Shown here in pieces: positions 2,050 to 27,218 of a stretch of DNA of 64,000 bases. A model generated the notes under the pieces. The model was not told the origin of the DNA and did not search any database. It saw only the letters and a program-made list of their open reading frames with translations. Made by a program: the position numbers and the translations under genes. Origin of the DNA: a virus; IMG/VR virus record IMGVR_UViG_3300021339_000006, positions 12,798 through 76,797 of that record. One strand, 5' to 3'. Position 1 is the stretch's first letter. Each line of letters begins with the position of its first letter.

Positions 2050-2384
2050 ATAAACGCAGTCAGCAACCACTCCGTCGCGCGCAGGTTTGGATTTTGATCG
2101 AACCGACGTATCTCGTCCGACGCCACTTCCATCGGATCGTCAGGAATGTCCGATGGCATTTCGCCTAACATTAACCTGTCTCCGGCAGACATGATACGAT
2201 CCACATAAACCACAGCCTTGGATATTTGACGCTCTCCCTTGGAATCAAGGAACTCCTGCGCAGTGCCATCCCACCGACAATCAATCTCAACAGGTTCATC
2301 AAAGGAAAAAGTGCCATAGTGGTCAGCATCCAAACGCTTCCACCATATCGCCTTCTGCCTGCGCATCCTTCGAATCAAACTCAC
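2046..2384 (-). CDS. head closure (stopper) protein
   Basis: D.YG..F..PVEIDCRW...G....S.AVVYVD pattern. GTG start overlaps the upstream stop (GTGA). Confidence 0.65.
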   Translation of the reverse strand: MSLIRRMRRQKAIWWKRLDADHYGTFSFDEPVEIDCRWDGTAQEFLDSKGERQISKAVVYVDRIMSAGDRLMLGEMPSDIPDDPMEVASDEIRRFDQNPNLRATEWLLTAFI

Positions 2385-3019
2385 GCTGCCACCTCCAGTT
2401 TCAAGTAATCGTGAAACGCTTGGAAGTCCATAAAAGGAAAACAAGTGAGACGTGAAGTTCCGTCTGTGACGTTTAACACCTCGACACCTGCTGGAAGCTC
2501 CTTCCGTATTGTGAGGAAGCCACGCATGAAACGCTCAAACGCTTTATCCTTGGTCAACGTGGTGTTGAACTTGTGCCAGTGGGATTCCTTCGCGGCTGAG
2601 TTGCACAAGTCGTAACCGAGCAGGAAGATACGCTGCGCGCCTAATGAGATCGCTAAGTTGATCGCCATTGCACCCGTTGAGTAGTTCCATCCGAGAGTGT
2701 CGCCATCGTGGAGACCGTCGCGCACGCGCTTCATCTTCAGTAACTGTGGCACGTCCCATCCTTCCAGCCCAGCGTTTGTTACAAGTCGGTTGGTAAATAC
2801 TTCTTTGAGGTCTGGAAGTGCTTGGCGCATCCACCATGCCAGATCACCGAAGCATCCAATCTTTATGATGTCATTTCCGAGGCGGCAGGCGTCGTTGCAT
2901 CCAATTGTGTTCCTGCCACTGAGAAGCTGAAAATCAAAGCGGCGCAAAGAAGGGCCGCCTCCAATCAAGAAACAGTCCTGTCCATTCCACTCACGGTCCG
3001 GGATCCAGTAAGCGTTCAT
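2381..3019 (-). CDS. Maf/DUF115/GT42 (sialyltransferase-like) family protein
   Basis: LIGGGPSL, IGCND and STGAMAINLAISLGAQRIFLLGYDL match the GxGPS...LG...I.LLGxD signature. Confidence 0.65.
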   Translation of the reverse strand: MNAYWIPDREWNGQDCFLIGGGPSLRRFDFQLLSGRNTIGCNDACRLGNDIIKIGCFGDLAWWMRQALPDLKEVFTNRLVTNAGLEGWDVPQLLKMKRVRDGLHDGDTLGWNYSTGAMAINLAISLGAQRIFLLGYDLCNSAAKESHWHKFNTTLTKDKAFERFMRGFLTIRKELPAGVEVLNVTDGTSRLTCFPFMDFQAFHDYLKLEVAA

Positions 3020-3899: not shown

Positions 3900-4964
3900 T
3901 CAGGGAGCCACGCCGTGGACAATACCAGTCTGTCCATCGTAGTCCGAGCGAAGCTGCGGAACCCAGATCGCCATCACTTTGAAATGCACGCGCATTCCGC
4001 CGTCCGTCTCCCACTGCAAGGTGGTGATGTCCATACCATTCACGAGCCGCGCCACGTCGCTCGTCATTTGCACGAGGATCATTTGGAAGCCAGTGAGGTA
4101 ATCGACAGTTTGGATTTCCGACACGCCGTTGATCTGCATCAAACGCTGGCGGACGGAGTTGTCTCCCTTCTCGTCGCTGTAGTCATTGTCCAAGAACAAG
4201 TCCCAGTCCGGCGAGACGTAGAGCGTCCACGGGCCGAAGTAGTTATTGTTGGTGGACAACTGGCGCATCTCGAGCACCTCGTTGAGCAAGGTCTTCGGAG
4301 TCCAACCACTTGCTGTCGGATTCGTCAACACCTGAGTCAACCGCCCAATGTAATTGGTGAGGCCGTAAACAGTCCCGCCGCCGTAGCTGTATGTCCCAGC
4401 AGTGCCGAGGAACAGTTTCTCAGCCTCTTCCGTCACCTTGCGCGCAGCCAACTGCGCTGTCGTGGTGTCCACGCCCTGACCATTGTTGCGGGAGACCGCA
4501 ATCTGGCGTGCGTTGAAGAAGAAGTCCTTGTGAATCACGGGCAACGGAAGGTTGATCGTGTCCGTCTCAGGGCGATCGCCTTCGCTCTTACGCGCCGGAT
4601 CCATGCTGATGGTCGCCGGTGTGATGTCGCCCATCCGATCCGACTCAAGCACTGTTTTACCCATGCCGTTGGGCACAGTGTAAACCAAGCCCTTGCTGCG
4701 GAAGTCCGAAATGATCCGGAGCCGTTCACGCGCAGCCATTGTCACTGCGTCGTCGATCTGTTTCCACTCGTCTTTGCGCAAAGTGGCGTTCCGAGTCAAC
4801 ACTGGTGTGGACACCAGCTTGTTGGTTCGGAGGTCCTTTGTGGCAATGTAGTGCCGCCCGTCATCCCCAACCCAGGGACGCAGTGTGGCAACGTCGAAGC
4901 CGTTGGTAAGGAGCGTCGAAGCGACGTTCCCTATGGCGCGGCCATTGTAAATGAAGTCTTTCAT
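3900..4964 (-). CDS. major capsid protein (HK97 fold, encapsulin/linocin M18-like family)
   Basis: TLRKDEWKQIDDAV, LPLPVIHKDF and GLTN motifs. 354 aa, follows protease and decoration genes. Confidence 0.85.
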   Translation of the reverse strand: MKDFIYNGRAIGNVASTLLTNGFDVATLRPWVGDDGRHYIATKDLRTNKLVSTPVLTRNATLRKDEWKQIDDAVTMAARERLRIISDFRSKGLVYTVPNGMGKTVLESDRMGDITPATISMDPARKSEGDRPETDTINLPLPVIHKDFFFNARQIAVSRNNGQGVDTTTAQLAARKVTEEAEKLFLGTAGTYSYGGGTVYGLTNYIGRLTQVLTNPTASGWTPKTLLNEVLEMRQLSTNNNYFGPWTLYVSPDWDLFLDNDYSDEKGDNSVRQRLMQINGVSEIQTVDYLTGFQMILVQMTSDVARLVNGMDITTLQWETDGGMRVHFKVMAIWVPQLRSDYDGQTGIVHGVAP

Positions 4965-5468: not shown

Positions 5469-6932
5469 TTAGGCGGCAGCCGTCTTCTTGTCAAAGTTCA
5501 TCACCGGAATTTCCAACGGCGCCTCACCAGAGGTCGTTGCGTTGCCGACCGGTGCCATTCCCGCATAGCTTGCCTGCGCAGTCTCAGAGGTCGCAGCCGA
5601 CAAGCGGGCCAGTTTGCGCAGCTCACCAAGCGGCCGCGTGTTCAATTCTTCCTTCGCGAACTCGTTGCTCTCGTTGGCAAGGATAACATCGACCAGCTTG
5701 GTCTTTTCCTCGTTGAGAGACTGCATTGAGTTGCGCAACACTTCCCGCACTTCGGGCGGAGCATTGTCCACGTATTCCTGCACGTTGACAACCTTCGGAG
5801 GAGCCGAAGGTGTGACAGGAGGCGGAACCACCGGCGGCGCGGCCGGAGGTGTCACGGGAGGTGCAACAGGTGGAGGTGTTGCTGGCGGCGTGATGCCGTT
5901 CACAACAATGTCCAACTGCTTATCGTTGTAAGCCATCAAAGCTGCGCGGTCGGTCTCTGCCCACCCCGCATTCGCTGCAATGATGCCGTCCACTTTTTCT
6001 TTTTGTGTCTTCATCGCGGTTGTTTCTGTTTCTTCTTCTGCGGGACGGTGGTTCCCAACAAAGGAACCATCAACCGTCCGGTATTCAGTGACTCGCTTTA
6101 CCTTAACCGGCGTCTCGTCACTCAACGAAACGTCAGTGTCATTTGACATGTAACCGAGCCGCCAAAATTCATTCTCCTTCTCGTAAATAAAGAAGTTGGA
6201 GAACACATCCACCACCCAAATGTAAGGGCCGTTCTCACCGACCTTGAGTTGGTCGCGCAGCTTTTGGGAAAGCGCGCTGTGGATGTTACTGTAAGACATT
6301 TCGTTGTCTGCCAGTCCCATCTTTGTCAGCAACTGATGGAAAGCCTGACCAACCGGCGATCGCTTATCCGCTGCTTGGTTGCGAAGGAAGCCGGCACCGT
6401 CAGCAATCGAACAAGCGCCGATCTGGTCAGGCAGTAACGCAAGATGGTCGGGCCGGTAGTTGCGCGCAACGAGGCTGTAATCCTCGGACTTCCATTTGCC
6501 CGTCGTGTTCTCTCCGTCGAAAAATAATCCAGTGGAAAGCTCCATCATCTCTTTCGCCTTCACTGCCTTAAGGATTCGATCGTCGATCAAATCGGCGCGG
6601 TCCTTTTCAATCCACGCCTCGCTGGTGAGTCTGTTGTTGGCGAACTTAGTGTTGAGCATCAAACCAACCTTGCGGTTGTTGATAACGTCGGGTTGGCACG
6701 CACTGATCCCTTCGCCGTTCAGCGTCGGATGGTAAACCACCACTGGTTTGTGATTCCAAACCTCAGGTGTCTTTTCCAACTCGTCCTTTGGATAAAACAC
6801 AGGGCCGGCCGATCCTGCATGGACGCCCTCAGTGAGGATAACCATCGGAACCACCACATGAGTGCGTCCTTCCAGCGTTTCCTCACGTGAATTTGCAGCC
6901 ATTAAATTGAGTGTGATCTTTGAGTAAGTCAT
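5469..6932 (-). CDS. prohead maturation protease-scaffold fusion (DUF2213-like)
   Basis: KPVVVYHP, ELSTG and PDHLALLP..GAC motifs. Pro-rich linker and helical C-terminus. Confidence 0.8.
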   Translation of the reverse strand: MTYSKITLNLMAANSREETLEGRTHVVVPMVILTEGVHAGSAGPVFYPKDELEKTPEVWNHKPVVVYHPTLNGEGISACQPDVINNRKVGLMLNTKFANNRLTSEAWIEKDRADLIDDRILKAVKAKEMMELSTGLFFDGENTTGKWKSEDYSLVARNYRPDHLALLPDQIGACSIADGAGFLRNQAADKRSPVGQAFHQLLTKMGLADNEMSYSNIHSALSQKLRDQLKVGENGPYIWVVDVFSNFFIYEKENEFWRLGYMSNDTDVSLSDETPVKVKRVTEYRTVDGSFVGNHRPAEEETETTAMKTQKEKVDGIIAANAGWAETDRAALMAYNDKQLDIVVNGITPPATPPPVAPPVTPPAAPPVVPPPVTPSAPPKVVNVQEYVDNAPPEVREVLRNSMQSLNEEKTKLVDVILANESNEFAKEELNTRPLGELRKLARLSAATSETAQASYAGMAPVGNATTSGEAPLEIPVMNFDKKTAAA

Positions 6933-7029: not shown

Positions 7030-7431
7030 TTAGTTTCCAGCTTCTTGTTTTTGCTGGGACTCGAGTAGGGCATCGGCCGGATTGGATGGAATGAACGGTC
7101 TCAGAAGGATGCAGTTGTTGAAAAGATTCTGCACCGTCTGCTCGGGATCGTCCGATATGAGAGCGCGTAGTTCCGAGGGTGTGATAGCGTTAGCAAAAGC
7201 ATCCGTGAGAACCTTCAACGACTCTCCCACAAGTTGGTATTGCAAAACTGTTGTCCGCATTTGATCCACCAAGGCTGTTGTGCCAGACCGCTGGTGGCTT
7301 TGCACCGTTGTGACAATGCGCCGCCATCGCCGCTCCACCTCCTCAGTTGGAATGCCCATCTTACAAGAGATGCGGGCGTTGGTCATTCCCATGGACTTGT
7401 ATTTGACTATCAAGGCATCATCGGTGAGCAC
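7030..7431 (-). CDS. hypothetical protein with possible N-terminal HTH
   Basis: GMTNARISCKMGIPTEEVERRW resembles a helix-turn-helix. Confidence 0.5.
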   Translation of the reverse strand: MLTDDALIVKYKSMGMTNARISCKMGIPTEEVERRWRRIVTTVQSHQRSGTTALVDQMRTTVLQYQLVGESLKVLTDAFANAITPSELRALISDDPEQTVQNLFNNCILLRPFIPSNPADALLESQQKQEAGN

Positions 7432-8246
7432 GCTGTCCTCCTTATTGAAATATAATCGAAAAGCACTTTGCGATTCTGACTGGACTGGATCGGATTCTTG
7501 TAATCACCAAACGGTGCGGGATGCCAACGATGGAGCAAGCCTAGCCGATCGTTGAGTTCGATCAGCTCTCGCGCCTTGCGCCGACTGATTTCTTCCCGAC
7601 ACCTTTGCGTCACGTTGTCCATACGCAAGTCTCCGGGCAGTGGGTCGGCTTGCTGTTGGTGGTGCTCCAGCATGTAAATTTGCTGGTAATCCTCCCACCC
7701 GTGTCCTTTGAATTCAGAAACGCAGCCACCCAACTCGAGGTAATCCAAACGCCGACAAATGAAATTCGTGCCAGCTGGAAACGGGTAGCTCGATGGATGC
7801 TCGATAAGGTGGTAATACTCCGACACGAGAATGGGCATCTTGCTTGGTGATAAGTTGGAAATCGACGTCCCCTGATCCATGTAATACATGCCACCATTGA
7901 ACCACTGCCGAGGCTGCGCCGTTTCCAGGATTGGGAGCAACTCTGTGAAATAGCGCGTGTGGGCAATGCAGTCCACGTCGAGCTTCATAATCCAATCAGA
8001 TTTGGCAAGTGCCGCGCCCACGTTGTGGTAGTGACCGATCGAACGAGGTGCTCGATCGCTGCTCCTGCAATCCACAAATTGCAATGCCTCGCACTCATAC
8101 TGGAGTGCCCACTCTGGAATCGTGCTAGGGGAAATGAGCATGTGACACACGCCTTGCGTAGGCGCGGCACAAACGGATTTCAACCACAAGGTCAGCATCT
8201 CCGGCCGATTCCAATAAGGTGTGATGGTGGTGAGGATTGGTTTCAT
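7410..8246 (-). CDS. glycosyltransferase (GT2/GT7-like, GT-A fold)
   Basis: ITPYWNR, NVGA, KLDVD (DxD), GG..SEFKGHGWED and LHRWH motifs. Confidence 0.8.
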   Translation of the reverse strand: MKPILTTITPYWNRPEMLTLWLKSVCAAPTQGVCHMLISPSTIPEWALQYECEALQFVDCRSSDRAPRSIGHYHNVGAALAKSDWIMKLDVDCIAHTRYFTELLPILETAQPRQWFNGGMYYMDQGTSISNLSPSKMPILVSEYYHLIEHPSSYPFPAGTNFICRRLDYLELGGCVSEFKGHGWEDYQQIYMLEHHQQQADPLPGDLRMDNVTQRCREEISRRKARELIELNDRLGLLHRWHPAPFGDYKNPIQSSQNRKVLFDYISIRRTACSPMMP

Positions 8247-8416
8247 TCTGCTTTTGCGTTTCTTAGGATCTTGTCTGGATTGGCGCCTTTGAGTTTTAGT
8301 AGCACCCGCAGAATACGATTCTCATCACGTGCGGCATCATTCTTCTTTTGGGTAATAATGTCAGCCTTGCGCTCGGTAATGACTCCAAGTTTCGGTCTTC
8401 CAACGCGCGCTTTCAT
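8243..8416 (-). CDS. small basic hypothetical protein (57 aa)
   Basis: Fills the gap exactly, with ATGA overlaps at both ends (MKARVGRPKLG...NAKAE). Confidence 0.55.
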   Translation of the reverse strand: MKARVGRPKLGVITERKADIITQKKNDAARDENRILRVLLKLKGANPDKILRNAKAE

Positions 8417-9048
8417 TTCCGAGAATAGTATCTGTCGCCCCAGCCTTGTTTCATCATCTTTGTTTCTTTGGGAAACAACTGAAACTTGGCAAGGTGGTCG
8501 TCGATCTCTGGCGTGAGTGGACAGTCCTTGTAAAGGTGCTTCTCATTCACCTCAATGTAGGCGTGATCAAACTTCCAAAGCAGATCGCCCATCCCGCGCA
8601 ACGCCATCAGCTCTGCTCCCTGCAAGTCCGCATTGAGAAACCATCCCGGCCCTACAATGTCTTTCAACGCCCAACAGTGCAACAGGGTATCCAACCGAAT
8701 CGTTCGCATTGGGTGATCCTTAATGAACTTGGTGGTTGGGTGTTCCTTCGCGTGCGTGTCAAACGCCAAGAAGCTGGAACTTTGTGACTCGTTGTTGGCT
8801 TCATGAAACATTACCTGCTCCCCGTCGTGCTCACCCAAGCACGCACAGATTGCGAAGTTGCCTGGAAACGTTGCCAGCTTGCGCACCAGCTGCTGGTGTA
8901 TATGGGGCAATGCTTCCACCCATATCACCTTCCGAATGCCCAGGGCGGCATACGCCTGCGCTTCCTGCCCGAGATTAGCACCAAGGTGGAGGACGCCAGG
9001 TGTTTGAATGTTGTGGCGTTTGAAGAGTTCATCGAAGGGGATTAGCAT
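8413..9048 (-). CDS. FkbM-family SAM-dependent methyltransferase
   Basis: LHLGANLGQE, WVEA and LNADLQGAELMALRG motifs. Confidence 0.85.
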   Translation of the reverse strand: MLIPFDELFKRHNIQTPGVLHLGANLGQEAQAYAALGIRKVIWVEALPHIHQQLVRKLATFPGNFAICACLGEHDGEQVMFHEANNESQSSSFLAFDTHAKEHPTTKFIKDHPMRTIRLDTLLHCWALKDIVGPGWFLNADLQGAELMALRGMGDLLWKFDHAYIEVNEKHLYKDCPLTPEIDDHLAKFQLFPKETKMMKQGWGDRYYSRK

Positions 9049-9049
9049 A

Positions 9050-9718
9050 TCAGGTTACGATTAAGGGTTTGTAAATTTGCTCGAACACCTCCACTCGACG
9101 TTCCCAAGTGTGCTGTCCTGCAAAGTGAATAGTTGGCATTCCTTTTCGCCACAGGATGCCGTCATGCCACATCTCAGGGCAAAAGCATCCGATCTCTTCT
9201 GCGCTTGCTGCGTAGATGCCCTTGAAGGCAGTCTCTCGAATGATCTCATCCATATACCATTGCTCCCAAGGAGGATAGGTAACGATCACGCGCTTCTTAG
9301 GTTCGATGCGCAGCGTTCCAATGGTGCAGCGCTCATGCCACTCATCGACAAAATCCATGGCATCCGCTGTCCTCTTCCACACCGTCAATCCAGCGCAGAT
9401 GTATTTCCAGAGCTTCCAGTTGGCTTGGTGGTAACCTGCCATGAAAATGTCCTTTTTGAGGAGGTCAGCCAAGTCCACTCTAAAGTCCATAAACGCCACA
9501 TCAGCGTCTGCCCACACAATCTCTTTATATCCAGCCAACATCGCTTCCCGAATGACGTGAACTTTGGTAAAGCTGGGATGCAGGTCTGGCCAAAACTTCT
9601 CACTTGTCTGCAAGTAGTCGTATCCACGTGCCTCCGCATACAGCCTGTGGTTCTCGAGGAACGGCTGGCAGAGGGAAGCGATCTCTGGCGTTGCGACAGT
9701 GAGTAGGGCTTTCTTCAT
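9050..9718 (-). CDS. glycosyltransferase (GT34/Mnn10-like nucleotide-sugar transferase)
   Basis: YAEARGY, WADAD (DxD), CAG, WEQ and IHFAG motifs. Confidence 0.7.
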   Translation of the reverse strand: MKKALLTVATPEIASLCQPFLENHRLYAEARGYDYLQTSEKFWPDLHPSFTKVHVIREAMLAGYKEIVWADADVAFMDFRVDLADLLKKDIFMAGYHQANWKLWKYICAGLTVWKRTADAMDFVDEWHERCTIGTLRIEPKKRVIVTYPPWEQWYMDEIIRETAFKGIYAASAEEIGCFCPEMWHDGILWRKGMPTIHFAGQHTWERRVEVFEQIYKPLIVT

Positions 9719-10260
9719 GGCTTTTGTATCCACCAGCTTGGGTAGTCCGTCTCCTGCGTCACGTTCACTTTCAGCCCGTGCGTCGCAGCAAACGTATCCA
9801 CCGCAGTCTTGACGCCGTAATCACCGGACTCAATCACGCCATCCAAGTAGTCATGCCCTGCCAAGATTCCATGCCGACGCACCTTGGGCCACCACAACGC
9901 CACGTCCTCTGTAGCTGCCGCAAGCGTATGGTTAGCGTCGATGTAGGCAAAGTCCAGGAAGTCGTCGCTAAAGTGCGGCGCAGCTTGCGCAGAGGTCATC
10001 CGCATTGGAATGGCACGCTTCCTGTAGTCGCGCGCCCGCGTCAAGATGCGTTGATAGCGGGCTTCCTGGTCATTGTCCCCATGCACGCTGTAGCCTGGCA
10101 CATCGAGGATCTTCCAAGGATCAATCTGCCAGCATGTCAACCCTAGAATTCTATCTAGAAGATCGAAGCTGAAGTAACCCTCCGCCACTCCAACTTCCAC
10201 GGCATAGTTGACCAGACCTAAGTCCTTCAACGCACCTGCAAAGTCTTTCCTCGTTCTCAT
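9715..10260 (-). CDS. class I SAM methyltransferase (Methyltransf_24-like)
   Basis: VEVGVAEG, IDPW, DFAYIDANH and GILAGHDY motifs. Confidence 0.85.
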   Translation of the reverse strand: MRTRKDFAGALKDLGLVNYAVEVGVAEGYFSFDLLDRILGLTCWQIDPWKILDVPGYSVHGDNDQEARYQRILTRARDYRKRAIPMRMTSAQAAPHFSDDFLDFAYIDANHTLAAATEDVALWWPKVRRHGILAGHDYLDGVIESGDYGVKTAVDTFAATHGLKVNVTQETDYPSWWIQKP

Positions 10261-10268
10261 CAATGTCC

Positions 10269-10994
10269 TCACCATTGCCTCCGTATCTTTTTAGTTGGTA
10301 TCGGTCTTTCCCAAACACGCTCCCCAGTCCACTCCGGAACCTTCCCCACGTATTGGATATCCTGCGCAGTCGAAATGTAGGCAGCCTGCGAACCACCGCG
10401 CTCACTGAGGCGGCCAGGCAGCGGGCGGTTATACCAGTAGAAAGGCTTGAAGCGTTCGGCGATCCCAACAGAAGTAACGCCTTCCTTTTTCAATCTCCGA
10501 TCCAGCTCTTGATCGTCCCCTGCGTATTGCGGGCGGTAACCTCCACAGCGTTCCACTAACGTCCTACGAAATCCCCAACAGCCATGGTAGGCAAAACGAT
10601 CTGTGTGACGCCAATGGAATGTATCGCTCTGCACCCATTCACCATCAACGTGATCTATGGCAACACGTGGCTGAACAAATTGGCTACCTTGCAACGCGTC
10701 AACAATGGACTCCAGCCACCAAGGCATGTAAATATCATCGTCGTCTGCCTTCGCCAGCGCGTCACTGTCAAAGGAAGCCATTGCGATGGCTGCATTGTTC
10801 TTCTCCCCGAGCGAACGAAACCGACGAGGAACAGACACCACATGCCACCTGTCACCCGACTGGTTTTCATACTGTCCAGAATCATCGAGGATAACCAACT
10901 CCCTATTCTCATAGGTTTGGTTTTCAAAGCATTTGATCATCCGCCCTAATAGCTCTGGGCGATTCAACGTCGGACAAAATGCGGTGATTTTCAT
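10269..10994 (-). CDS. glycosyltransferase family 2
   Basis: CPTLNR, ELVILDD, LGEKNN and ADDDD motifs. Confidence 0.85.
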   Translation of the reverse strand: MKITAFCPTLNRPELLGRMIKCFENQTYENRELVILDDSGQYENQSGDRWHVVSVPRRFRSLGEKNNAAIAMASFDSDALAKADDDDIYMPWWLESIVDALQGSQFVQPRVAIDHVDGEWVQSDTFHWRHTDRFAYHGCWGFRRTLVERCGGYRPQYAGDDQELDRRLKKEGVTSVGIAERFKPFYWYNRPLPGRLSERGGSQAAYISTAQDIQYVGKVPEWTGERVWERPIPTKKIRRQW

Positions 10995-11734
10995 TTCAGG
11001 CGTTCCCACTCTACGGGAACGATGTCTTTTACATCAAGCCCATTCCACCCAGGCACAAACCAAGGCGTTGGCATCACCACACGCTTCATCGGATTCTGAT
11101 TTAACCATGCAGCCCACCACGAGAACGTGCTGGCAGAACAAATTTGATTCCAACACCAACTCATCTCGACCAAGTCTTCCAGCTCATTATTTCCTTCCGA
11201 GAACGTGCAATCGTCCCTGTGCCCGAACGTCTCTTTGCACCACGAAATATCGTCACTGAAGAATCGAAAGTTCTCACCAGGAAAGGTAGCCATTGCACGC
11301 TCGATCCATTGCACAGGAACTGGTGGATGCTTCCGTGTCCAGCGCAAGTAATCACCGCGCCGAACGTGGACGGCTGTGCCAGAATGTGGAAACCAAGGAA
11401 AGTCGAACAGGTTGCGGATATTCCACTCCCACTTTTTGAAATACTTCTCCGACTGCCAGTAACCGTTGAGCAGAATGTTCTGCTCCCGCCACTCCTCCTT
11501 AAAGGGCCGCTCGTGATGGCAGAACACCGGCTCCTCAATCGTTACTGACGGCAGGTTCGGATTGAAGTTTGGGTTGACAAGGTGCTGGAGATAGACGGGA
11601 CTCCACTTGGGATCCCTCGACTCTGCCAACGTTGGCATGGTGAACTCAAGTTGGTGGTCCAGTGCGTAGCTGATTGCGCCTGCTGCTTGGAACAAGAAAT
11701 TGCCCAAGCGTCCGTAGGTTAGGGGCTTGACCAT
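10991..11734 (-). CDS. alpha-1,2-fucosyltransferase-like (GT11)
   Basis: GRLGNFLFQ, GYWQSEKYF, HVRRGDY, FSDD and STFSWWAAWL are the hallmark GT11 motifs. Confidence 0.9.
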   Translation of the reverse strand: MVKPLTYGRLGNFLFQAAGAISYALDHQLEFTMPTLAESRDPKWSPVYLQHLVNPNFNPNLPSVTIEEPVFCHHERPFKEEWREQNILLNGYWQSEKYFKKWEWNIRNLFDFPWFPHSGTAVHVRRGDYLRWTRKHPPVPVQWIERAMATFPGENFRFFSDDISWCKETFGHRDDCTFSEGNNELEDLVEMSWCWNQICSASTFSWWAAWLNQNPMKRVVMPTPWFVPGWNGLDVKDIVPVEWERLK

Positions 11735-11735
11735 G

Positions 11736-12371
11736 CTAGATAAGGAGTTTGTAGTATTCGCCTTCTTTGAACTTTGTGCCAAGTGTAATGGATTCCTGCG
11801 CGCTCTCCTCGTGGTAACGGGCAAGTGGAAGGATCCGAAAGTCCATGCTTACACGCGCCGCATTGGTGCAGTTGCGATGATTTCCGTGCGTGAGAACGTT
11901 GCCATCGAACGCAATCAACTCCCCTACGCGCATACGCATAGGCTCAAAGTCCTGCTTCCCTGGTTCCGATTCAACCCACACGCTGGCTGATCCGTCGGAA
12001 TTGGTTAGTGGGATGATGTAGTTCTTCTCGCCCTTAGGGTGCCCGAACGCAGCATCATTGTGGAAGGCGCCGACAGCAACATTGCCTGGAAGGTGGATGC
12101 GGAAAGTAGGAAACCGCTGATAGAGGATTCGCATCGGATACGTGGGCGCGACTACCGACCGAACAAAGTCCTCGTAGGTATTCACCATCTCCGGCCACCC
12201 AGCACGATACTTGTCATAAAAACGTTTGTGGAAAGATGTGGAAGAGTCAGCGCCTACTTTGAACAAATGCTCGTGGTGTTCCTGCAAAGAGGAGAGGTCT
12301 TTGGTTTCAAACAAAGCCTCCAACAGTCCAACAAAATCAAAGCCTGAGTAGGGTGTAGTCGTGTATCTCAT
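11736..12371 (-). CDS. 2OG-Fe(II) dioxygenase-like (StrG-like) protein
   Basis: YQRFPTFR, FHND (HxD), THGN and RVSMDFR motifs. Confidence 0.7.
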   Translation of the reverse strand: MRYTTTPYSGFDFVGLLEALFETKDLSSLQEHHEHLFKVGADSSTSFHKRFYDKYRAGWPEMVNTYEDFVRSVVAPTYPMRILYQRFPTFRIHLPGNVAVGAFHNDAAFGHPKGEKNYIIPLTNSDGSASVWVESEPGKQDFEPMRMRVGELIAFDGNVLTHGNHRNCTNAARVSMDFRILPLARYHEESAQESITLGTKFKEGEYYKLLI

Positions 12372-13344: not shown

Positions 13345-13773
13345 TTAACCGCGTGATTTGCGAGACGGAGCCGGAGGAGGTGTCTCCTCATCCTCTTCGT
13401 CGCCTTCTTCTTCGTCATCGGCTGGGATCAGCTCGTCCTGAGACTCCGGCGCCTCAGCAACTTCCACGGTGGTGGCATCTTTGTGCGCCACTGTGTAACC
13501 AATCTCCACAACCAGCGGAGTCACGTCTGGACCGACGTGAGCGTCAACCTGAACGCTGACAACCTTGTCGCCAAGCGCGCCGTCACCGTTGACATAAATG
13601 ACAATCTCCTTCTGGCTTGAGTCAGGTGAAATTGTGGGCGCGGACGAATCGCCTTCCACAACTGCACCGACAGCAAACGCGCCACTGTCCAGCACGTCCA
13701 CTGCCTCATCAGGCGTCAATGTCAGTTTGCGCCGGTAGCCTGGCTTGATGGACTTCTTGAGTTGAACTCTCAT
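13345..13773 (-). CDS. hypothetical beta-rich protein with acidic tail
   Basis: Start MRVQLKK with SD-like GGAAGAG and ATGA overlap. Confidence 0.55.
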   Translation of the reverse strand: MRVQLKKSIKPGYRRKLTLTPDEAVDVLDSGAFAVGAVVEGDSSAPTISPDSSQKEIVIYVNGDGALGDKVVSVQVDAHVGPDVTPLVVEIGYTVAHKDATTVEVAEAPESQDELIPADDEEEGDEEDEETPPPAPSRKSRG

Positions 13774-13937
13774 TTCTCTTCCTTCTTTGGTATTGGTTCG
13801 TCTCCGCCGTCTTCCACAAGGATTACGAACGGGACGCGCCTTGGTTTTGGTTTTGTCTTGCATGATAGCAGGGTCATGGCCGCCAACACGACGGCACCCG
13901 CAGTCAACGCGAAGCTGATTATCAAAGCTGTTTTCAT
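13770..13937 (-). CDS. small putative lipoprotein (55 aa)
   Basis: Not in ORF track. MKTALIISFALTAGAVVLAAMTLLSC-KTKPK gives a signal peptide plus LLSC lipobox; ATGA overlaps on both sides. Confidence 0.5.
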   Translation of the reverse strand: MKTALIISFALTAGAVVLAAMTLLSCKTKPKPRRVPFVILVEDGGDEPIPKKEEK

Positions 13938-15397
13938 GGGCGCAATGGGACGGTTGGTTTCACTGTCGGGCGGCCGCGTTTTGTCTCACCGTTCTTTTCT
14001 CCCTCCTCCTCTTCATCCTCCTCCGGTTCCTCAAGAGCACGCTCCTCTTCCTCGAGTTGGACTTCCTCCATGCGTTCGCTGGCTGCATCAATGACAGCTT
14101 TGGCTTCATCGTCTTCCATTCCGAGGATCAGTGTGAGGTAATGGAACGGCGGGATCAAAAGATCGACGCCACCCATCGCATACTTTGCCAGCGCAGTAGT
14201 CTTCATCGACGCCACCTCTGCCTTCTCCTTGTCGCTGGGCGTATTGAGGTCGGGCCAGTGAACCTGAATCTCCTTGGGCTTGGACAGCGCGCCGAATGCA
14301 ATCAGCCGTTCTACTGTTGGCAGGATTACAAAAGGCGTGACGTATTCCTTGCGCCTGCGCGTGAGGCGTTTGATCCAAGCGCGGGCGTCCTGTTCGGATG
14401 CTAGTTGCGCAGCTTCTGACCCGATAAAAACGCGCCATGGGACTCCTAGGGCGGCAGCAATCAGCTTTATTTGAACCTCTACATGCGAGCCAGGGTCGGC
14501 TACTTGTGGCGTCAAGCTTTTTGCAGACATGCCCTGGAGCGCAATGTAACGCTGGAGCCCTTCCATGTAGGCTTCCAACTGTTTCTTTGTGCCCTCCTCG
14601 TCGATCTCAACGTCCTCCCCAGGCAGCGTTTCCAAGGACAGTCCTGGGAAGCCTCCCTTCCAAAACATCTCGCCACTGCCACCTGAGATCTTCTTCAAGT
14701 CCAGCAGTCGATTGTAAACCTTCTCCATCCGAGGCAGCCCGTAAACATCACTGGACATTCGGTTGTCTGCGAGGTGGATGATGCGCGACCAGTGAACCTT
14801 GTTGGAAGCGACGGCATTGGCTGTTCCCTGCACGTCCTGAAACTGGATGTTGTAAAGGACTGGAAGACCGTAGCGCGGGTTGGAGGTGTTGGTTTCGAAG
14901 GCGTCAATGCGAACCACCTGTTCATCGAAAGGTCGCACGTAAAGCAGCTCAAGCTTGGCATTGGCGTTGGTGATGATGTCACCCTTCTCTGTGATCCCTG
15001 GCGCAGGTTCGCTCAACGCCTTGCCGTCACTCAAGCCCAACAGCACCACACCGAACCTGCCGATCCCACTGAGAGTGTCCGCGCGCTGCAAGACAGAGAA
15101 CAGCCTGTGTTTCTTTTCCAGCTCAATGAACTCTTTCTCAAAAGGAGTTTCGGTTTGCTTCTCTGTCTCGAAGACTTCTGGATTCTCCGCCCACGTCTCC
15201 TCCGGCCACACAGAAACAACACGTGACGCAATGTCTCCGCGCAGGAACGCCTTCTTGCAATCCTCAGTGGTGACCTCAGATGGGTGCCCACATTCCTGGT
15301 CGATGTCGCGCATACTGTCGAGCTGCCGGCGCAGCCACAATTGGCGTTCGAGGAGGATGTTTTGAACTATCGCGGCATTGACAGCGAGTTTACTCAT
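13934..15397 (-). CDS. portal protein (DUF1073-like)
   Basis: YGLP..Y, VHWSRIIH, YG.PR, SGE.FW and GVPWRVFIG motifs. Size and position also fit. Confidence 0.85.
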   Translation of the reverse strand: MSKLAVNAAIVQNILLERQLWLRRQLDSMRDIDQECGHPSEVTTEDCKKAFLRGDIASRVVSVWPEETWAENPEVFETEKQTETPFEKEFIELEKKHRLFSVLQRADTLSGIGRFGVVLLGLSDGKALSEPAPGITEKGDIITNANAKLELLYVRPFDEQVVRIDAFETNTSNPRYGLPVLYNIQFQDVQGTANAVASNKVHWSRIIHLADNRMSSDVYGLPRMEKVYNRLLDLKKISGGSGEMFWKGGFPGLSLETLPGEDVEIDEEGTKKQLEAYMEGLQRYIALQGMSAKSLTPQVADPGSHVEVQIKLIAAALGVPWRVFIGSEAAQLASEQDARAWIKRLTRRRKEYVTPFVILPTVERLIAFGALSKPKEIQVHWPDLNTPSDKEKAEVASMKTTALAKYAMGGVDLLIPPFHYLTLILGMEDDEAKAVIDAASERMEEVQLEEEERALEEPEEDEEEEGEKNGETKRGRPTVKPTVPLRP

Positions 15398-15442: not shown

Positions 15443-15643
15443 TCACGTGGTCGAGAAACTCTTTTCCGCTGTGAGTTCGCAGACGAGGTGGGTGGTTTCC
15501 TTCAAGTCCTTCCATGTGACACCGTAGGTTGGTTGCTGCCCAGGGCGGACATAAATTCCAGTCACGATGCCCGCGCTTTCCGAGACCAGCTTGTGATACA
15601 CAGTGCTCTCGAGTGGAAAGGCGATTTCAAGGACAAACTTCAT
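15443..15643 (-). CDS. hypothetical protein
   Basis: Compact ORF with ATGA overlap. Confidence 0.55.
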   Translation of the reverse strand: MKFVLEIAFPLESTVYHKLVSESAGIVTGIYVRPGQQPTYGVTWKDLKETTHLVCELTAEKSFSTT

Positions 15644-16020
15644 GCGCCGTTGGAGGTTGGTAGTTCGCTAGGAGCTTCTTCACTGTCACCAAACTCCTGC
15701 CACATCCAGCGCACCACGTAGTCCATCACGGAAGTAGCCATCGGGATGTCGGGATTCTTGGTAGGGCCGCGAGGATCGAACTGGGTATGGGAAAGCTTAC
15801 GCACAATGTCCGCCAAGGAAACGCCACGCTGGAGCGCCATGCTAATGAGGATGCCGATGCAGCCCCACGTTCCAGCGTCCGCAGACTTGCCCATGTTCAC
15901 AAACACCTCACCAGGCGAGCCGTCGTCAAACAAACCTACCCTGATGTAACCCTTCACCGGCCCAACTTTGAACTTGTGGACAATGGCTGCGCGCGTCTCT
16001 GACAGTCGCCTACGTTCCAT
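15640..16020 (-). CDS. stand-alone class II ribonucleotide reductase C-terminal (TSCPD) domain protein
   Basis: RRRL..TR..IVHKFKVG..KGYI.VGLFDDGSPGEVF...SMALQRGV...F.P.G.T.NPDIP.ATSVMDY. Confidence 0.8.
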   Translation of the reverse strand: MERRRLSETRAAIVHKFKVGPVKGYIRVGLFDDGSPGEVFVNMGKSADAGTWGCIGILISMALQRGVSLADIVRKLSHTQFDPRGPTKNPDIPMATSVMDYVVRWMWQEFGDSEEAPSELPTSNGA

Positions 16021-16441
16021 GCTTCTCTCCCACTGGACCGACGCGACGCGACGGAGGACCATCTACTTTCTTAATACCTGCATCATCCGCCAAGATGTTC
16101 TTCTCCAGTTCTCCAACCATGGGTGATTTGGTTCGCATGTCCAGCACGCGCAGGCGTCGCATTCCAGCAATGCGCAGCAGGATCAGGTAGCCAAGCAAGT
16201 CCAACACAACGTCCTCACCGAACGCATTGGGACTGGATGCCATGCGACTCAGCTTGTCGTCGAGGCGCACCTTGATCTGTTCCGCAGCATCCGCTTTGGA
16301 GAAGATGCGAACGGGATTGAGGGCAGAGTCACCATACGCCCTGTTCTTCTGAATCAGGAGCGTTTGGATTTCATTGCAGACAGTTGCGATGTCTGCCTGA
16401 GTTTGGAGCAGCATCTCTTCTGTGGTTTCGTTGCTAATCAT
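16010..16441 (-). CDS. nucleotide-modification-associated domain protein (DUF1599/Nmad1-like)
   Basis: KNRAYGDS...IKVRLDDKLSR...DVVLDLLGYLIL. Confidence 0.65.
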   Translation of the reverse strand: MISNETTEEMLLQTQADIATVCNEIQTLLIQKNRAYGDSALNPVRIFSKADAAEQIKVRLDDKLSRMASSPNAFGEDVVLDLLGYLILLRIAGMRRLRVLDMRTKSPMVGELEKNILADDAGIKKVDGPPSRRVGPVGEKHGT

Positions 16442-17364
16442 ACCTTTGAATACTTTGGAATCCACGCTCCTTCGGCCGTCTGGTCGAAGTCACACATCAA
16501 ACGCGGCTCCTTCTCCACTAATATCTTCGCCACCTTGGAAAGCGCCACGGCGATTTCCTCCTCCGCTGCTGGGGACGTGCGCAGCGCAATGATGTGCCGC
16601 AGTGCGCGCAGGTTCAGCGACCAAACTCCGCCTGTCGCTACGCCCATTGGAATAATCCGGCGCAGGCAAGAGGTGAGCTGCTTCTTGAGATGGAAATTGT
16701 TGTTGGAATTGTCGATGTCCCACGTCTTCATCAAGTCAACATAGGCTTCCTGCGCAAACTGAAAGACACTGGCGAATACCTTCTGCGTATAACGCTTCTT
16801 GCTTGCGAGGTCATACAACTTCATCTGCGGAGATTTGCTAGGCTGCCCAGGAGGCACGTTCCACGGATCTAACTCCTCCAAAACTTCTCGCTCTTCCTTT
16901 GTCAATCGAATGGACGAGGGCATCCACCAAGGGATGTCTGTGAACCGAATGTATCTCATGGAACCCTCGCTGATCGCCACGCCCGCGCGATGCCTGTTCA
17001 TCTCGCCAGTAAAGACTCGGCTGACTCCTTCGATGGCAAAGTTGTAGGTGGCGTGTTCGAGGACAGAACCATGACCGGACTTGAGGATGTTCTCAAAGTA
17101 TTCGTGCCAGTCCTTGCGCACCTTGGTGACGTTTGGATTCAAGCCAGGCTCGAAACTCATGTAGCAGCGTTTGGCAGCGAGCCCAATGATGGATTCCGCA
17201 CCACTCAAAGGCTTGTGCTCACTCATGCTCCCAATGCCTTTGAAACAGCCATCTTGAGGCCAGGCGTATTTGGTAGCGCCTACATGATCCAACCACCTTC
17301 GAATCTCAGCGTCATCCGCTTGCGTCGCACCAATACAAAAGACCTCAATTTCAACATTTCTCAT
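16438..17364 (-). CDS. thyX: FAD-dependent thymidylate synthase
   Basis: GHGSVLEHA, RHR......SMRY and NLRALRH..LR....AEEEI motifs. Confidence 0.92.
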   Translation of the reverse strand: MRNVEIEVFCIGATQADDAEIRRWLDHVGATKYAWPQDGCFKGIGSMSEHKPLSGAESIIGLAAKRCYMSFEPGLNPNVTKVRKDWHEYFENILKSGHGSVLEHATYNFAIEGVSRVFTGEMNRHRAGVAISEGSMRYIRFTDIPWWMPSSIRLTKEEREVLEELDPWNVPPGQPSKSPQMKLYDLASKKRYTQKVFASVFQFAQEAYVDLMKTWDIDNSNNNFHLKKQLTSCLRRIIPMGVATGGVWSLNLRALRHIIALRTSPAAEEEIAVALSKVAKILVEKEPRLMCDFDQTAEGAWIPKYSKV

Positions 17365-24349: not shown

Positions 24350-25771
24350 TTACCATGCAGCGCCAGCCATCTTTTTCTTCTTGGCGATCTTATTGAAACC
24401 ACCACTGGCTGCATCGACTTGGTCATCATACTTGCCATGCGGAAAGTATTTCAGCTCGTCAATGAAGTCCTTCGTCCAGGCGCGCTTGAGGCAGTAGACG
24501 TTCCCGGCACCCATCTGCGATGCCAATGGATAAGCACGTGCTTCCTTGTCCCCTGTAGGGTGGAAGGCAATGACCTTGAACCCAGCCAGGTTGCGCACTG
24601 TGCTTTCCCCTGACTCCTTTCCTCCTGATCCTCCTTCGATCTCAATCACTACCGGCACCTCGTCCCCATCCTCCTCTGCCGTCTCTGCAATCCTCTCTTC
24701 CCGCTTAGTGGCGCCCCATTGTCCTCTGCGCACATCACATATCCAAAACTTACCCTTCTTGTCCACACCAATGCGGACGCCTGCTGACCAGTTGCCACCA
24801 TCGGGCGTGCCTGCTTTGTCCCAGGAACGAACCATGCGCAGGAGCTTCGGTTCGTTGTCCTCATAAACAACCTTATCAGTCTCAAACATGCCACCACCCA
24901 GAGGCACAGGATCTTGGAGCACTTGACTGGCGTATCCGTATGCACCCAGTTCCTCCTTCAGCGTTTCCAACACTTCCCTTGGCATCCGCACAGGATCGAG
25001 CAGTCCATCCACGTAATACTTTTTGAGTCCTGGTGGTGAGATGCTTTTATGCAATTCCCCAGGCAGGCAGATATGTTTGATCTGTCCAGCCTTGCGCGCC
25101 AGTAATTCTCCACTGGGATCAGCCTGCCCTAGGCGTTGCTGCACCAGTATCAGTGGCGAGACCAGCTTGTCCACTTTGCGCGTTGGCAGTGTGGTAGTCA
25201 TCCATCTGTTAATGCGTTTGATTTCAACCTGCGAATAACTCTCCTCAGGATTGATCGGATCGTCCACCAGCTGGAAGTGTCCGTGATAACCTGTGATCGC
25301 ACCTCCAACACCGACGCACAGGCGGGATCCCATCTGCGTATTGGTAAACAGCCCCTTGGTGTTTTCGTCCTCGCGCAATTGGATGTTGGGAAAGCAGGAT
25401 TGGTATTTGTCTGACTGAACCAAATCCCGCGCCTTCAAGCTGTCCTTCATCGCCACCGCCTGCGCGTAGGATGCGCAAACAAACTTGGCACTTGGCAAGC
25501 GAGTCCAAACCCAAGCAGGAAATGCCTGGCTGACAATAGTGGACTTGGTGCTGCCAGGAGGAACGTTGATTACCAGATCGTAGGCTTTTGGTTCTCCAAG
25601 GAACACGCGCTCTGCCATCACTTGCAACTCATCGCACAGGTATTCCACATGCCAATTCAGCACTGGCTCCTCTGCCACGATCACAGTCCAAAACTCCTTC
25701 AGGAACTCGTAGAAAGAATCCTTCACGATGGAAGCCAGGATCGTGAATTCGTTTACCTTTACGTCACTCAT
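24350..25771 (-). CDS. terL: terminase large subunit
   Basis: Walker A VPPGSTKS, Walker B LVDDP, nuclease SWDKAG and DDQVDA. Confidence 0.93.
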   Translation of the reverse strand: MSDVKVNEFTILASIVKDSFYEFLKEFWTVIVAEEPVLNWHVEYLCDELQVMAERVFLGEPKAYDLVINVPPGSTKSTIVSQAFPAWVWTRLPSAKFVCASYAQAVAMKDSLKARDLVQSDKYQSCFPNIQLREDENTKGLFTNTQMGSRLCVGVGGAITGYHGHFQLVDDPINPEESYSQVEIKRINRWMTTTLPTRKVDKLVSPLILVQQRLGQADPSGELLARKAGQIKHICLPGELHKSISPPGLKKYYVDGLLDPVRMPREVLETLKEELGAYGYASQVLQDPVPLGGGMFETDKVVYEDNEPKLLRMVRSWDKAGTPDGGNWSAGVRIGVDKKGKFWICDVRRGQWGATKREERIAETAEEDGDEVPVVIEIEGGSGGKESGESTVRNLAGFKVIAFHPTGDKEARAYPLASQMGAGNVYCLKRAWTKDFIDELKYFPHGKYDDQVDAASGGFNKIAKKKKMAGAAW

Positions 25772-26573: not shown

Positions 26574-27218
26574 TTACTTAGCGTAAGGCACAGGGTCAAC
26601 CATCCCTGCTATTGCGAATGCTTTCTTCCGAGGAACACAGCTTGCGCACTCCCCACAATGCGTCTCTCCACTCAAGTAACACGACCAAGTCAATTCCATT
26701 GGGACGTTGAGCTTTTTCCCAGCCTTCACCACCTCCCATTTGTCCAAGTAATTGATAGGCATCAAAATCTGTGGACACTCTAATCCACAAGCGAATGGAA
26801 GTAGATTGTTAAATGCCTGAGTGAACTCTGGATAGTTGTCTGGATTTCCACCATGCGCAATGTTCCCATGTCCAATGTAAGGGATCCCATTTGTCATGCA
26901 GTATCCAGCGGCCAACGAGATCAGGATCAGGTTGCGTGCGTTCACTCTCGACACTGCCCCGGAGAGTTCCTTGGCGGGCCGCCTTCCCTGGATCAATCCC
27001 GACGTGACCACACCTCCAATTGCCACCTCAGCAATGTGGTGAGGCATTCCCATTGCTTTGGCGCAATCCTTGAGCGCCTTGTGCTCTTTCCACGTTGCAC
27101 GGCATCCATAGTCGATCATCAACAGCTCGACTTGGAAACCCTCATCTTTAAGGACTGCCGCAGCAACCACGCTGTCGAGTCCTCCACTGCAAAGAACTGC
27201 CACTTTGTTTGATTTCAT
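26574..27218 (-). CDS. queC: 7-cyano-7-deazaguanine synthase
   Basis: SGGLDS, RNLI.IS, PD and TWSCY...HCGECASC motifs. Confidence 0.92.
   Translation of the reverse strand: MKSNKVAVLCSGGLDSVVAAAVLKDEGFQVELLMIDYGCRATWKEHKALKDCAKAMGMPHHIAEVAIGGVVTSGLIQGRRPAKELSGAVSRVNARNLILISLAAGYCMTNGIPYIGHGNIAHGGNPDNYPEFTQAFNNLLPFACGLECPQILMPINYLDKWEVVKAGKKLNVPMELTWSCYLSGETHCGECASCVPRKKAFAIAGMVDPVPYAK

Follow-up and report, generated by a model that had tools for sequence, protein, structure and literature searches.

A seven-enzyme sugar- and methyl-transfer island within the head genes of a metagenomic phage, a candidate virion glycosylation system

Gene organization of the island

The DNA stretch analyzed here (the window, 64,000 nucleotides) comprises bases 12798-76797 of the IMG/VR virus record IMGVR_UViG_3300021339_000006, a genome of 76,797 bp that is complete by CheckV, and its minus strand carries nearly all of the window genes. 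Among the head genes lies an island encoding seven enzymes, which we consider a candidate virion glycosylation system: a predicted PhyH-type Fe(II)/2-oxoglutarate (2OG) dioxygenase of 211 aa, hereafter u211, four glycosyltransferases (GTs), namely GT11, GT2, a GT34-like enzyme and GT2_2, and two methyltransferases, Methyltransf_24 and FkbM (Table 1). The order of transcription is portal, a 172-aa open reading frame (ORF), MuF, u211, GT11, GT2, Methyltransf_24, the GT34-like enzyme, FkbM, a 57-aa ORF, GT2_2, a 133-aa ORF, the DUF2213 protease, a 144-aa protein and the major capsid protein (MCP). The original prediction, made from the letters of this stretch, had described a six-enzyme cassette between a gp7-like head gene and the prohead protease. 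The block, the families and their order stand, and the enzyme count is corrected to seven; in addition, two small ORFs that encode no enzyme (57 and 133 aa) belong to the block.

From the MuF stop through GT2_2, the starts and stops overlap or abut, in agreement with the earlier description. The junctions read TAAATG (MuF stop and u211 start), TAGCATG, ATGA (four times, with such an overlap at the GT11 stop and GT2 start), ATGGTGA and TGATATG, and the genes are thus translationally coupled. The start of the 133-aa ORF is uncertain; with the GTG at 7431 as start codon, the overlap with GT2_2 would be 22 bp. Promoter-like and terminator-like sites in the island were counted as well, and their numbers were no higher than the shuffled expectation, which makes them uninformative. 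Transmembrane (TM) segments were not found in the island enzymes, whose top hydrophobic 19-mer has a Kyte-Doolittle (KD) value of 1.11. Moreover, neither PF01370 (Epimerase/GDP-mannose dehydratase) nor PF00483 (NTP_transferase) had a match across the 76.8-kb genome. Because the genome lacks these nucleotide-sugar genes, those of GDP-fucose synthesis included, the pathway must draw on host nucleotide sugars.

Table 1. Positions of the island genes, of flanking head genes and of other features mentioned in the text
Feature	Position in window	Strand	Family or remark
UDG-superfamily-domain protein, 395 aa	44634-45821	-	
QueC (7-deazaguanine pathway enzyme)	26574-27218	-	
Large terminase (TerL)	24350-25771		
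TSCPD-domain protein and ThyX	15640-17364	-	
Portal	13934-15397	-	PF06381
55-aa ORF	13770-13937	-	
172-aa ORF, window-specific	13345-13863		No homologue in any relative
MuF / SPP1 gp7-like head morphogenesis protein, 348 aa	12372-13418	-	PF04233, 59.9 bits; upstream island boundary
u211, predicted PhyH-type Fe(II)/2OG dioxygenase, 211 aa	11736-12371	-	Predicted fold, no Pfam match
GT11	10991-11734	-	PF01531
GT2	10269-10994	-	PF00535
Methyltransf_24	9715-10275	-	PF13578
GT34-like GT-A enzyme	9050-9718	-	Pfam matches below cut-off only
FkbM methyltransferase	8413-9048	-	PF05050
57-aa ORF	8243-8416	-	No family match; ATGA-coupled on both sides
GT2_2, last island enzyme	7410-8246	-	PF10111
133-aa HTH-like ORF	7030-7431	-	Weak DUF3037 match only
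DUF2213 prohead protease/scaffold	5469-6932	-	PF09979; downstream boundary, 97-bp gap to island
MCP	3900-4964	-	DUF6260 and Linocin_M18 matches; candidate acceptor
MptE-like (Maf/WaaZ-fold) transferase-like protein	2381-3019	-	PF01973, 23.7 bits, below cut-off; between head-tail connector genes
Collagen-like protein, 208 aa	445-1071	-	PF01391, 29 bits
Tail-region protein, 147 aa	2-415	-	

Enzyme families and catalytic motifs

Five of the seven enzymes exceed the curated Pfam cut-offs; the GT34-like enzyme falls below them, and u211 was identified via structure prediction. The catalytic motifs are intact: GT11 has HVRRGDY, the three GT-A enzymes have DxD, and u211 has HxD...H...R. Sequence searches of the PDB returned nothing for six cassette enzymes, nor for the dioxygenase profile.

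For GT11, PF01531 scores 73 bits against a cut-off of 23.9 (E 3e-20), the match covering the C-terminal half of the profile only, and phrog_2644 is matched over its full length (E 1e-39). The true start codon of this gene is ATG (11734) rather than TTG (11824), and the translation holds AVHVRRGDYL plus an N-terminal GRLGNFLFQ. We take HxRRxD to be the GDP-fucose-binding motif of the GT11 family, and membership in this family alone suggests that the product may be fucosylated. The nearest GenBank phage matches of GT11 are cyanophage GT11 genes, with 31-37% identity. For GT2, PF00535 scores 45.4 bits against 23.3 (E 1e-11), a DDDD motif is present, and relatives share 70-76% identity; a tblastn search of 50,697 GenBank phage records gave no match for this enzyme. 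GT2_2 matches PF10111 with 32 bits against 27.3, and its D90-x-D92 is invariant in 14 homologues. Additionally, at least 227 distinct GT2_2 homologues were found at 43-57% identity, many of them on contigs of 70-83 kb, which indicates that this phage group is abundant.

Both methyltransferases are well above their cut-offs. Methyltransf_24 scores 55 bits against 26.3 with PF13578 (E 1.7e-14), and its phage matches are cyanophages and an archaeal-virus gene annotated as an O-methyltransferase. FkbM scores 45.3 bits against 22.7 with PF05050 (E 1.4e-11), matches phrog_8156, and is present in every cassette variant examined.

The label of the GT34-like enzyme, given in the original prediction, is tentative. 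Its WADADV DxD motif is invariant in five orthologues, and the enzyme resembles GT-A transferases; the label itself rests on matches that do not reach the cut-offs (GT34, PF05637, 21.1 bits against 23; DUF273, 22.2 against 30) and on a low-confidence model. This model has a mean pLDDT (predicted local distance difference test) of 59.9 (five sequences), and its N-terminal nucleotide-binding half is confident. In a Foldseek search of the PDB, the best match of the model was the GT34-like domain 1 of PBCV-1 A064R (2p6w, E 1e-6, 17-18% identity), followed by the GT34 enzyme XXT1 (E 6e-5). The match to A064R is suggestive but weak.

A predicted dioxygenase linked to sugar chemistry

No Pfam family matched u211 at E <= 0.1, PF05721 (PhyH) included, and a PhyH annotation occurs only on neighboring Atlas clusters, for 13-19% of their members. 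The AlphaFold2 (AF2) model, based on an alignment of 31 homologues, has a pLDDT of 92 and is predicted to be a double-stranded beta-helix with the fold of PhyH-type Fe(II)/2OG dioxygenases. Residues H104-x-D106...H162...R173, corresponding to the iron triad and the 2OG-binding Arg, are invariant in the 31 sequences. Foldseek gave a probability of 1.00 to the PhyH-type enzymes SptF, PtlH, AviO1, HygX, EvdMO1, KanJ and PHYHD1, with modest TM-scores of 0.4-0.5. Among these matches, AviO1, HygX, EvdMO1 and KanJ act on sugars, and the nearest viral folds include cyanophage PhyH/2OG oxygenases.

The u211 family comprises 2,231 representative clusters at E <= 1e-3, and its Atlas clusters are mostly viral. 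Across 185,579 prokaryote species, with one genome each, there was one match, located on the contig of a metagenome-assembled genome (MAG). This near-absence from prokaryotes argues against the island being a host locus that was simply captured. The fusion partners of family members are DegT/DnrJ/EryC1 sugar aminotransferases (4/10 tested), a domain of GT10 fucosyltransferases, a WbsX GT, NUDIX and WDGH, and GT11 lies within 8 kb of a u211 homologue in 15 of 25 IMG/VR loci. In one locus (L035), the u211-family gene follows genes for a reductase/epimerase, a 4,6-dehydratase and an RmlC-like 3,5-epimerase, and precedes those for a sulfotransferase and a methyltransferase. Because u211 relatives are fused to sugar enzymes and neighbored by deoxysugar genes, and because u211 is predicted to fold like sugar-acting PhyH enzymes, u211 probably tailors a sugar or nucleotide sugar of 6-deoxyhexose chemistry and is probably neither a protein hydroxylase nor a DNA-base oxidase. 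The dioxygenase noted in the original prediction is a member of the cassette with a tie to sugar chemistry, rather than a bystander.

Two further roles were considered for this enzyme. Hydroxylation of the collagen-like protein as a glycosylation site, in the manner of mimivirus, was rejected, since the collagen gene is missing in the cassette-bearing relatives L020 and L023 and u211 is tied to sugar enzymes; glycosylation dependent on prolyl hydroxylation, as for Skp1, was judged less likely for the same reasons. The collagen-like protein itself carries GXY repeats and is encoded among the tail genes.

Homologues also extend to giant viruses. A u211 homologue with 33% identity lies at 7971-8690 of L042, a giant-virus MAG contig (IMGVR GVMAG), and Nucleocytoviricota proteins listed in the Atlas fuse the u211 fold to DegT aminotransferase and GNAT domains.

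The island in related and unrelated phages

Loci of the window's own lineage (lineage A) were retrieved with MuF and u211 as queries. An island occupies the same site in L002/L003/L010, L004, L005, L020, L021, L023/L024 and L027, at 43-76% identity and with shuffled gene content, and because orthologues with 47-75% identity lie at this site in relatives, the island genes can be taken as real. In the cassette-less loci L006, L009, L011 and L013-L018, the protease comes immediately after MuF. On the portal tree, six cassette-bearing phages form one clade (ultrafast bootstrap (UFBoot)/SH-aLRT 94/94) that is sister to the cassette-less L006/L009, which indicates a single gain of the island in this clade, followed by diversification.

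The variation among these islands is considerable. The u211 gene is missing in L002 and L005 and was undetected in the truncated L004, and in L020, L021, L023 and L027 it lies between FkbM and GT2_2. In L005, a GT2-GT11 fusion, a GT25 and a second FkbM replace the GT2 and GT34-like genes of the window, and L027 carries additional methyltransferases. GT2_2 is present in all lineage-A cassette loci that reach its position (L002/L003/L010, L005, L020, L023/L024 and L027); L004 and L021 end earlier. The 133-aa helix-turn-helix (HTH)-like ORF has orthologues in L002, L005, L020, L023 and L027 and none in the cassette-less loci. As a separate observation, the L005 fusion (516 aa, L005:11665-13215) is a Rosetta-stone link between two adjacent window genes. 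The 57-aa ORF was considered as a conserved carrier or acceptor and was rejected, as relatives have non-homologous small ORFs at this position.

Homologues of u211 with 57-62% identity also occur in an unrelated lineage B (L019, L022/L025, L026 and L029), whose neighboring genes within 8 kb on either side, terminase and portal included, show no similarity to any window protein. The order in lineage B is TerL (phrog_6681), a GT25-like gene, GT2, the core, a GT47-like gene, a gene for a 188-aa protein with an EDD motif, and portal (phrog_6547). The core, u211, GT11, Methyltransf_24 and FkbM, stands there with methyltransferase fusions in variable order. Furthermore, L028 carries a similar block between primase/helicase and TerL, directly upstream of TerL. 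The core of u211, GT11, Methyltransf_24 and FkbM is thus horizontally mobile between phage lineages. Large multi-TM proteins such as flippases, polymerases or ligases are absent from the 107 ORFs of 11 cassettes, as are initiating phosphoglycosyl transferases, and one hydrophobic segment occurs in a few small ORFs only. The earlier statements that TM segments, nucleotide-sugar genes and a flippase or polymerase are absent are confirmed by these searches. The 188-aa protein was examined as a possible relative of the essential GTs Che8 gp110 and Corndog gp38, with which it shares the EDD motif; the hhalign comparison was not significant (E 0.07), and the candidate was dropped.

These data bear on host envelope remodeling, an unlikely alternative in which the soluble GTs and methyltransferases would act on undecaprenyl-linked O-antigen, exopolysaccharide (EPS) or S-layer intermediates of the host at the inner membrane face and host flippases and ligases would export the product. 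The cell surface would thereby change, for example so as to block superinfection or to keep progeny from sticking to debris. The enzyme families agree with such a function, as GT11, GT2, GT25 and FkbM are classic families of O-antigen and lipopolysaccharide (LPS) clusters, and GTs of O-antigen synthesis are usually peripheral proteins without TM helices. Moreover, the only cultured-phage homologues of the window GT11, Methyltransf_24 and FkbM, at 27-37% identity, are those of cyanophages (such as S-SCSM2R, P-SSM2 and S-CAM9), and the GT11, FkbM, Methyltransf_24 and 2OG-oxygenase genes of cyanomyoviruses are usually read as modifiers of the host cell wall or surface, a predicted function (PMC12801897). 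However, an initiating phosphoglycosyl transferase, flippase, polymerase or ligase is missing from all 11 cassettes, and the window cassette has no TM helix, in contrast to the GtrABC system of serotype conversion with its GtrA flippase, GtrB and multi-TM Gtr. The location within head or packaging operons (two unrelated lineages) and just upstream of TerL (a third one) also argues against it, as does the near-absence of the u211 family from prokaryote genomes. In addition, no integrase was noticed, though no search aimed at integrases was made, and late expression would leave a short time for rebuilding the surface.

DNA and other molecules as acceptors

Hypermodification of DNA, in which a modified base of the phage DNA would receive a glycan from the GTs just before packaging, is improbable in our assessment, less likely than envelope remodeling. 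Phages are known to make multi-sugar DNA glycans with GT-A and GT-B enzymes that are relatives of LPS enzymes. LPS-related phage GTs glycosylate 5-hydroxymethylcytosine (5hmC), in clusters that can adjoin terminase or structural genes (bioRxiv 10.1101/2023.12.21.572611). The DNA glycan clusters (5mYOX/ThyS-dependent; Pyle et al.) resemble the island in having several LPS-GT-related enzymes, sometimes near terminase or structural genes. The lineage-B island lies between TerL and portal, and ThyX and QueC are encoded within about 5-15 kb of the window island. The DNA glycan clusters differ in their base-hydroxylating or hydroxymethylating partner, which is missing in the window genome, where O-methyltransferase-type enzymes are found instead. 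Specifically, the 76.8-kb genome has no match to PF00145 (cytosine C5-methyltransferase), PF00303 (ThyA-like) or PF12851 (TET/JBP), the PF12851 search being uninformative as it matched no control genome either, and encodes ThyX only. The top structural matches of u211 are of the PhyH type, with no TET/JBP among the matches listed, and its relatives are fused to sugar enzymes. The glycans in the DNA literature covered are mono- to tri-saccharides without O-methylation.

Of the deazaguanine pathway, QueC alone was detected; no TGT/DpdA (PF01702) was found in the genome, and the ORFs around QueC have no Pfam match. To our knowledge, 7-deazaguanine has no hydroxyl acceptor. The original prediction had judged DNA glycosylation less likely, which agrees with the failure to find C5-methyltransferase, ThyA-like and, by a weak search, TET/JBP genes. 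Its supporting claim that the DNA-modification genes lie with the replication genes is only partly right, since QueC adjoins the large terminase and a TGT/DpdA partner was not found.

Slightly more improbable again is an acceptor of another kind, such as a non-virion protein of phage or host, a small molecule, or a free methylated oligosaccharide that would be released. Such an acceptor would suit the PhyH-type relatives AviO1, HygX and KanJ, which act on small-molecule sugars; the island also includes an HTH-like protein, and our analysis identified no acceptor. On the other hand, the repeated placement in head and packaging operons would then have no obvious rationale, and genes for a scaffold of a secondary metabolite are lacking.

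Known virion glycosylation systems

In the literature covered, glycosylation of virions by the phage's own enzymes is demonstrated in a few mycobacteriophages only, where it alters antibody recognition. [quoted passage not shown] In Corndog, gp35-38 (a methyltransferase and GTs) lie directly upstream of the capsid maturation protease gp39, and the window island likewise precedes the DUF2213 protease. Both systems consist of soluble, virus-encoded glycosylation enzymes, with the window glycan known from genes alone. In contrast to Corndog, the island, from a soil phage, has seven enzymes including GT11, FkbM and a 2OG dioxygenase. Mycobacteriophages are also absent from the tblastn matches of the window enzymes. 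A phage-encoded glycosylation cassette next to the capsid protease is already known from Corndog; what sets the window block apart is the mobile core of u211, GT11, Methyltransf_24 and FkbM.

A second counterpart is the chlorovirus PBCV-1, in which soluble GTs and two S-adenosylmethionine (SAM)-dependent methyltransferases, the latter capping a terminal 6-deoxyhexose, act on the MCP glycan (PMC9614988). With A064R (three domains) and A061L, this virus resembles the window in its soluble virus-encoded GT-A enzymes and two methyltransferases, and the PDB calls A064R domain 1 'involved in the glycosylation of the major capsid'. In contrast, PBCV-1 is a eukaryotic giant virus with N-linked glycans, and its genes are scattered and expressed early. 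In the literature covered, no GT11 or dioxygenase is described for the PBCV-1 pathway (PMC9614988).

Virion glycosylation as the preferred reading

Virion glycosylation is the best reading of the island, and we regard it as evenly poised between right and wrong. Virion proteins are favored as acceptors because the island lies in the head operon in lineage A, between TerL and portal in lineage B and upstream of TerL in a third lineage, because the enzymes are soluble and export machinery is absent, and because of the position of the Corndog cassette and the chlorovirus analogue. The link to head assembly is strengthened by the synteny comparison, with the same site used in one clade, the core between TerL and portal elsewhere, and Corndog occupying the same slot. 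The original proposal of a soluble pathway acting on capsid or fiber proteins is upheld as regards solubility, embedding in the operon and use of host nucleotide sugars; its target is not, given the lack of mycobacteriophage homology, of an MCP extension and of a -GS motif.

In the proposed pathway, the seven soluble enzymes would be expressed within the head-assembly operon, presumably together and late. The four GTs (GT11, GT2, the GT34-like enzyme and GT2_2) would use nucleotide sugars of the host to build an oligosaccharide of about four residues with a fucose-type 6-deoxyhexose, and the SAM-dependent Methyltransf_24 and FkbM would O-methylate it. The phage-specific u211 would tailor a sugar or nucleotide sugar. 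The acceptor would most likely be a virion protein, or several of them, with modification taking place in the cytoplasm during head assembly, and the outcome would be a glycan coat whose composition differs between related phages.

Several findings weigh against this proposal, in which the late timing of expression is read from gene order. An MCP alignment of cassette-bearing and cassette-less relatives revealed no cassette-specific extension or motif. The capsid protein and the tail-tube protein of Che8 end in KTGS and SDGS and those of Corndog in LVGS and KGDS; in contrast, the window MCP ends in HGVAP and its tail protein in SGSEL, so that -GS or -GDS ends are missing. In comparisons of the window enzymes with Che8 gp108-110 and Corndog gp35-38, phmmer and blastp gave less than 5 bits and hhalign a probability of about 1% or less. 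The enzyme families of the island are typical of LPS and O-antigen clusters, the GT34-like model is of low confidence, and more distant u211 homologues adjoin ribonucleotide reductase (RNR) or DNA ligase genes, not head genes.

A broader interpretation is tentative and rather doubtful, though likelier than any of the alternative acceptors. According to this, a mobile, phage-specific module with a new PhyH-like 2OG dioxygenase family that tailors a 6-deoxyhexose, GT11, Methyltransf_24 and FkbM, spreading among unrelated tailed phages and reaching giant viruses, would have been inserted beside head and packaging genes and would produce an oxidized, methylated and strain-variable virion coat.

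If soil phages do glycosylate their virions with such unrelated enzymes, particle glycosylation would be a widespread and convergent trait of phages, with chemistry unseen in the mycobacteriophage system and common among environmental phages. Phage adsorption, stability, aggregation and recognition would then be affected, both in the environment and in therapy. The u211 family, with about 2,200 clusters, is nearly missing from cells and uncharacterized, and its context is testable, namely the tailoring of 6-deoxyhexoses or nucleotide sugars.

Genome setting and flanking genes

The window stretch was found in three soil-metagenome DNA runs from two studies, one run possibly being the source, and no RNA run is among the sequencing runs listed for it. 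The portal has at most 33% identity to that of any GenBank phage, and a DNA-level search of GenBank phages with the island gave no match. In addition to TerL, the genome encodes ThyX, a TSCPD protein, QueC and PolA, as well as an ATPase of clamp-loader type, a RecA-like protein and an SNF2 helicase; no tRNA genes were found in the genome. Between terminase and portal, the genes for the TSCPD-domain protein and ThyX form an insertion, so that the packaging-to-head region holds several metabolic inserts. The gene for the UDG-superfamily-domain protein lies directly upstream of the family-A DNA polymerase gene and overlaps it.

Near the portal, the 55-aa ORF has a strong hydrophobic segment (KD 2.30) with a lipobox-like LLSC; it overlaps the portal stop and competes with the 172-aa ORF. 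Relatives have MuF proteins of 620-754 aa, compared with 348 aa in the window (L005:9833-11701; L004:4829-7039; L023:1577-3841; L012:10031-12013). That of L005 has a match to an intein-splicing domain, and the other long MuFs carry long C-terminal extensions.

A C-terminal extension or Ser/Thr-rich acceptor segment was sought in the MCP and none was found. The Atlas structural neighbors of the MptE-like protein are MptE-like and GT2-fusion clusters, and its gene is conserved after that of the MCP in cassette-less relatives too, with two copies in L006. This protein could serve the virion module as a sugar transferase throughout the lineage and is not specific to the island. Finally, the 147-aa tail-region protein shares about 60% identity with the N-terminal portion of a 356-aa protein whose gene lies 7 kb downstream, beyond the window (genome 5543-6613), and from this similarity the two are predicted to be paralogous structural modules.

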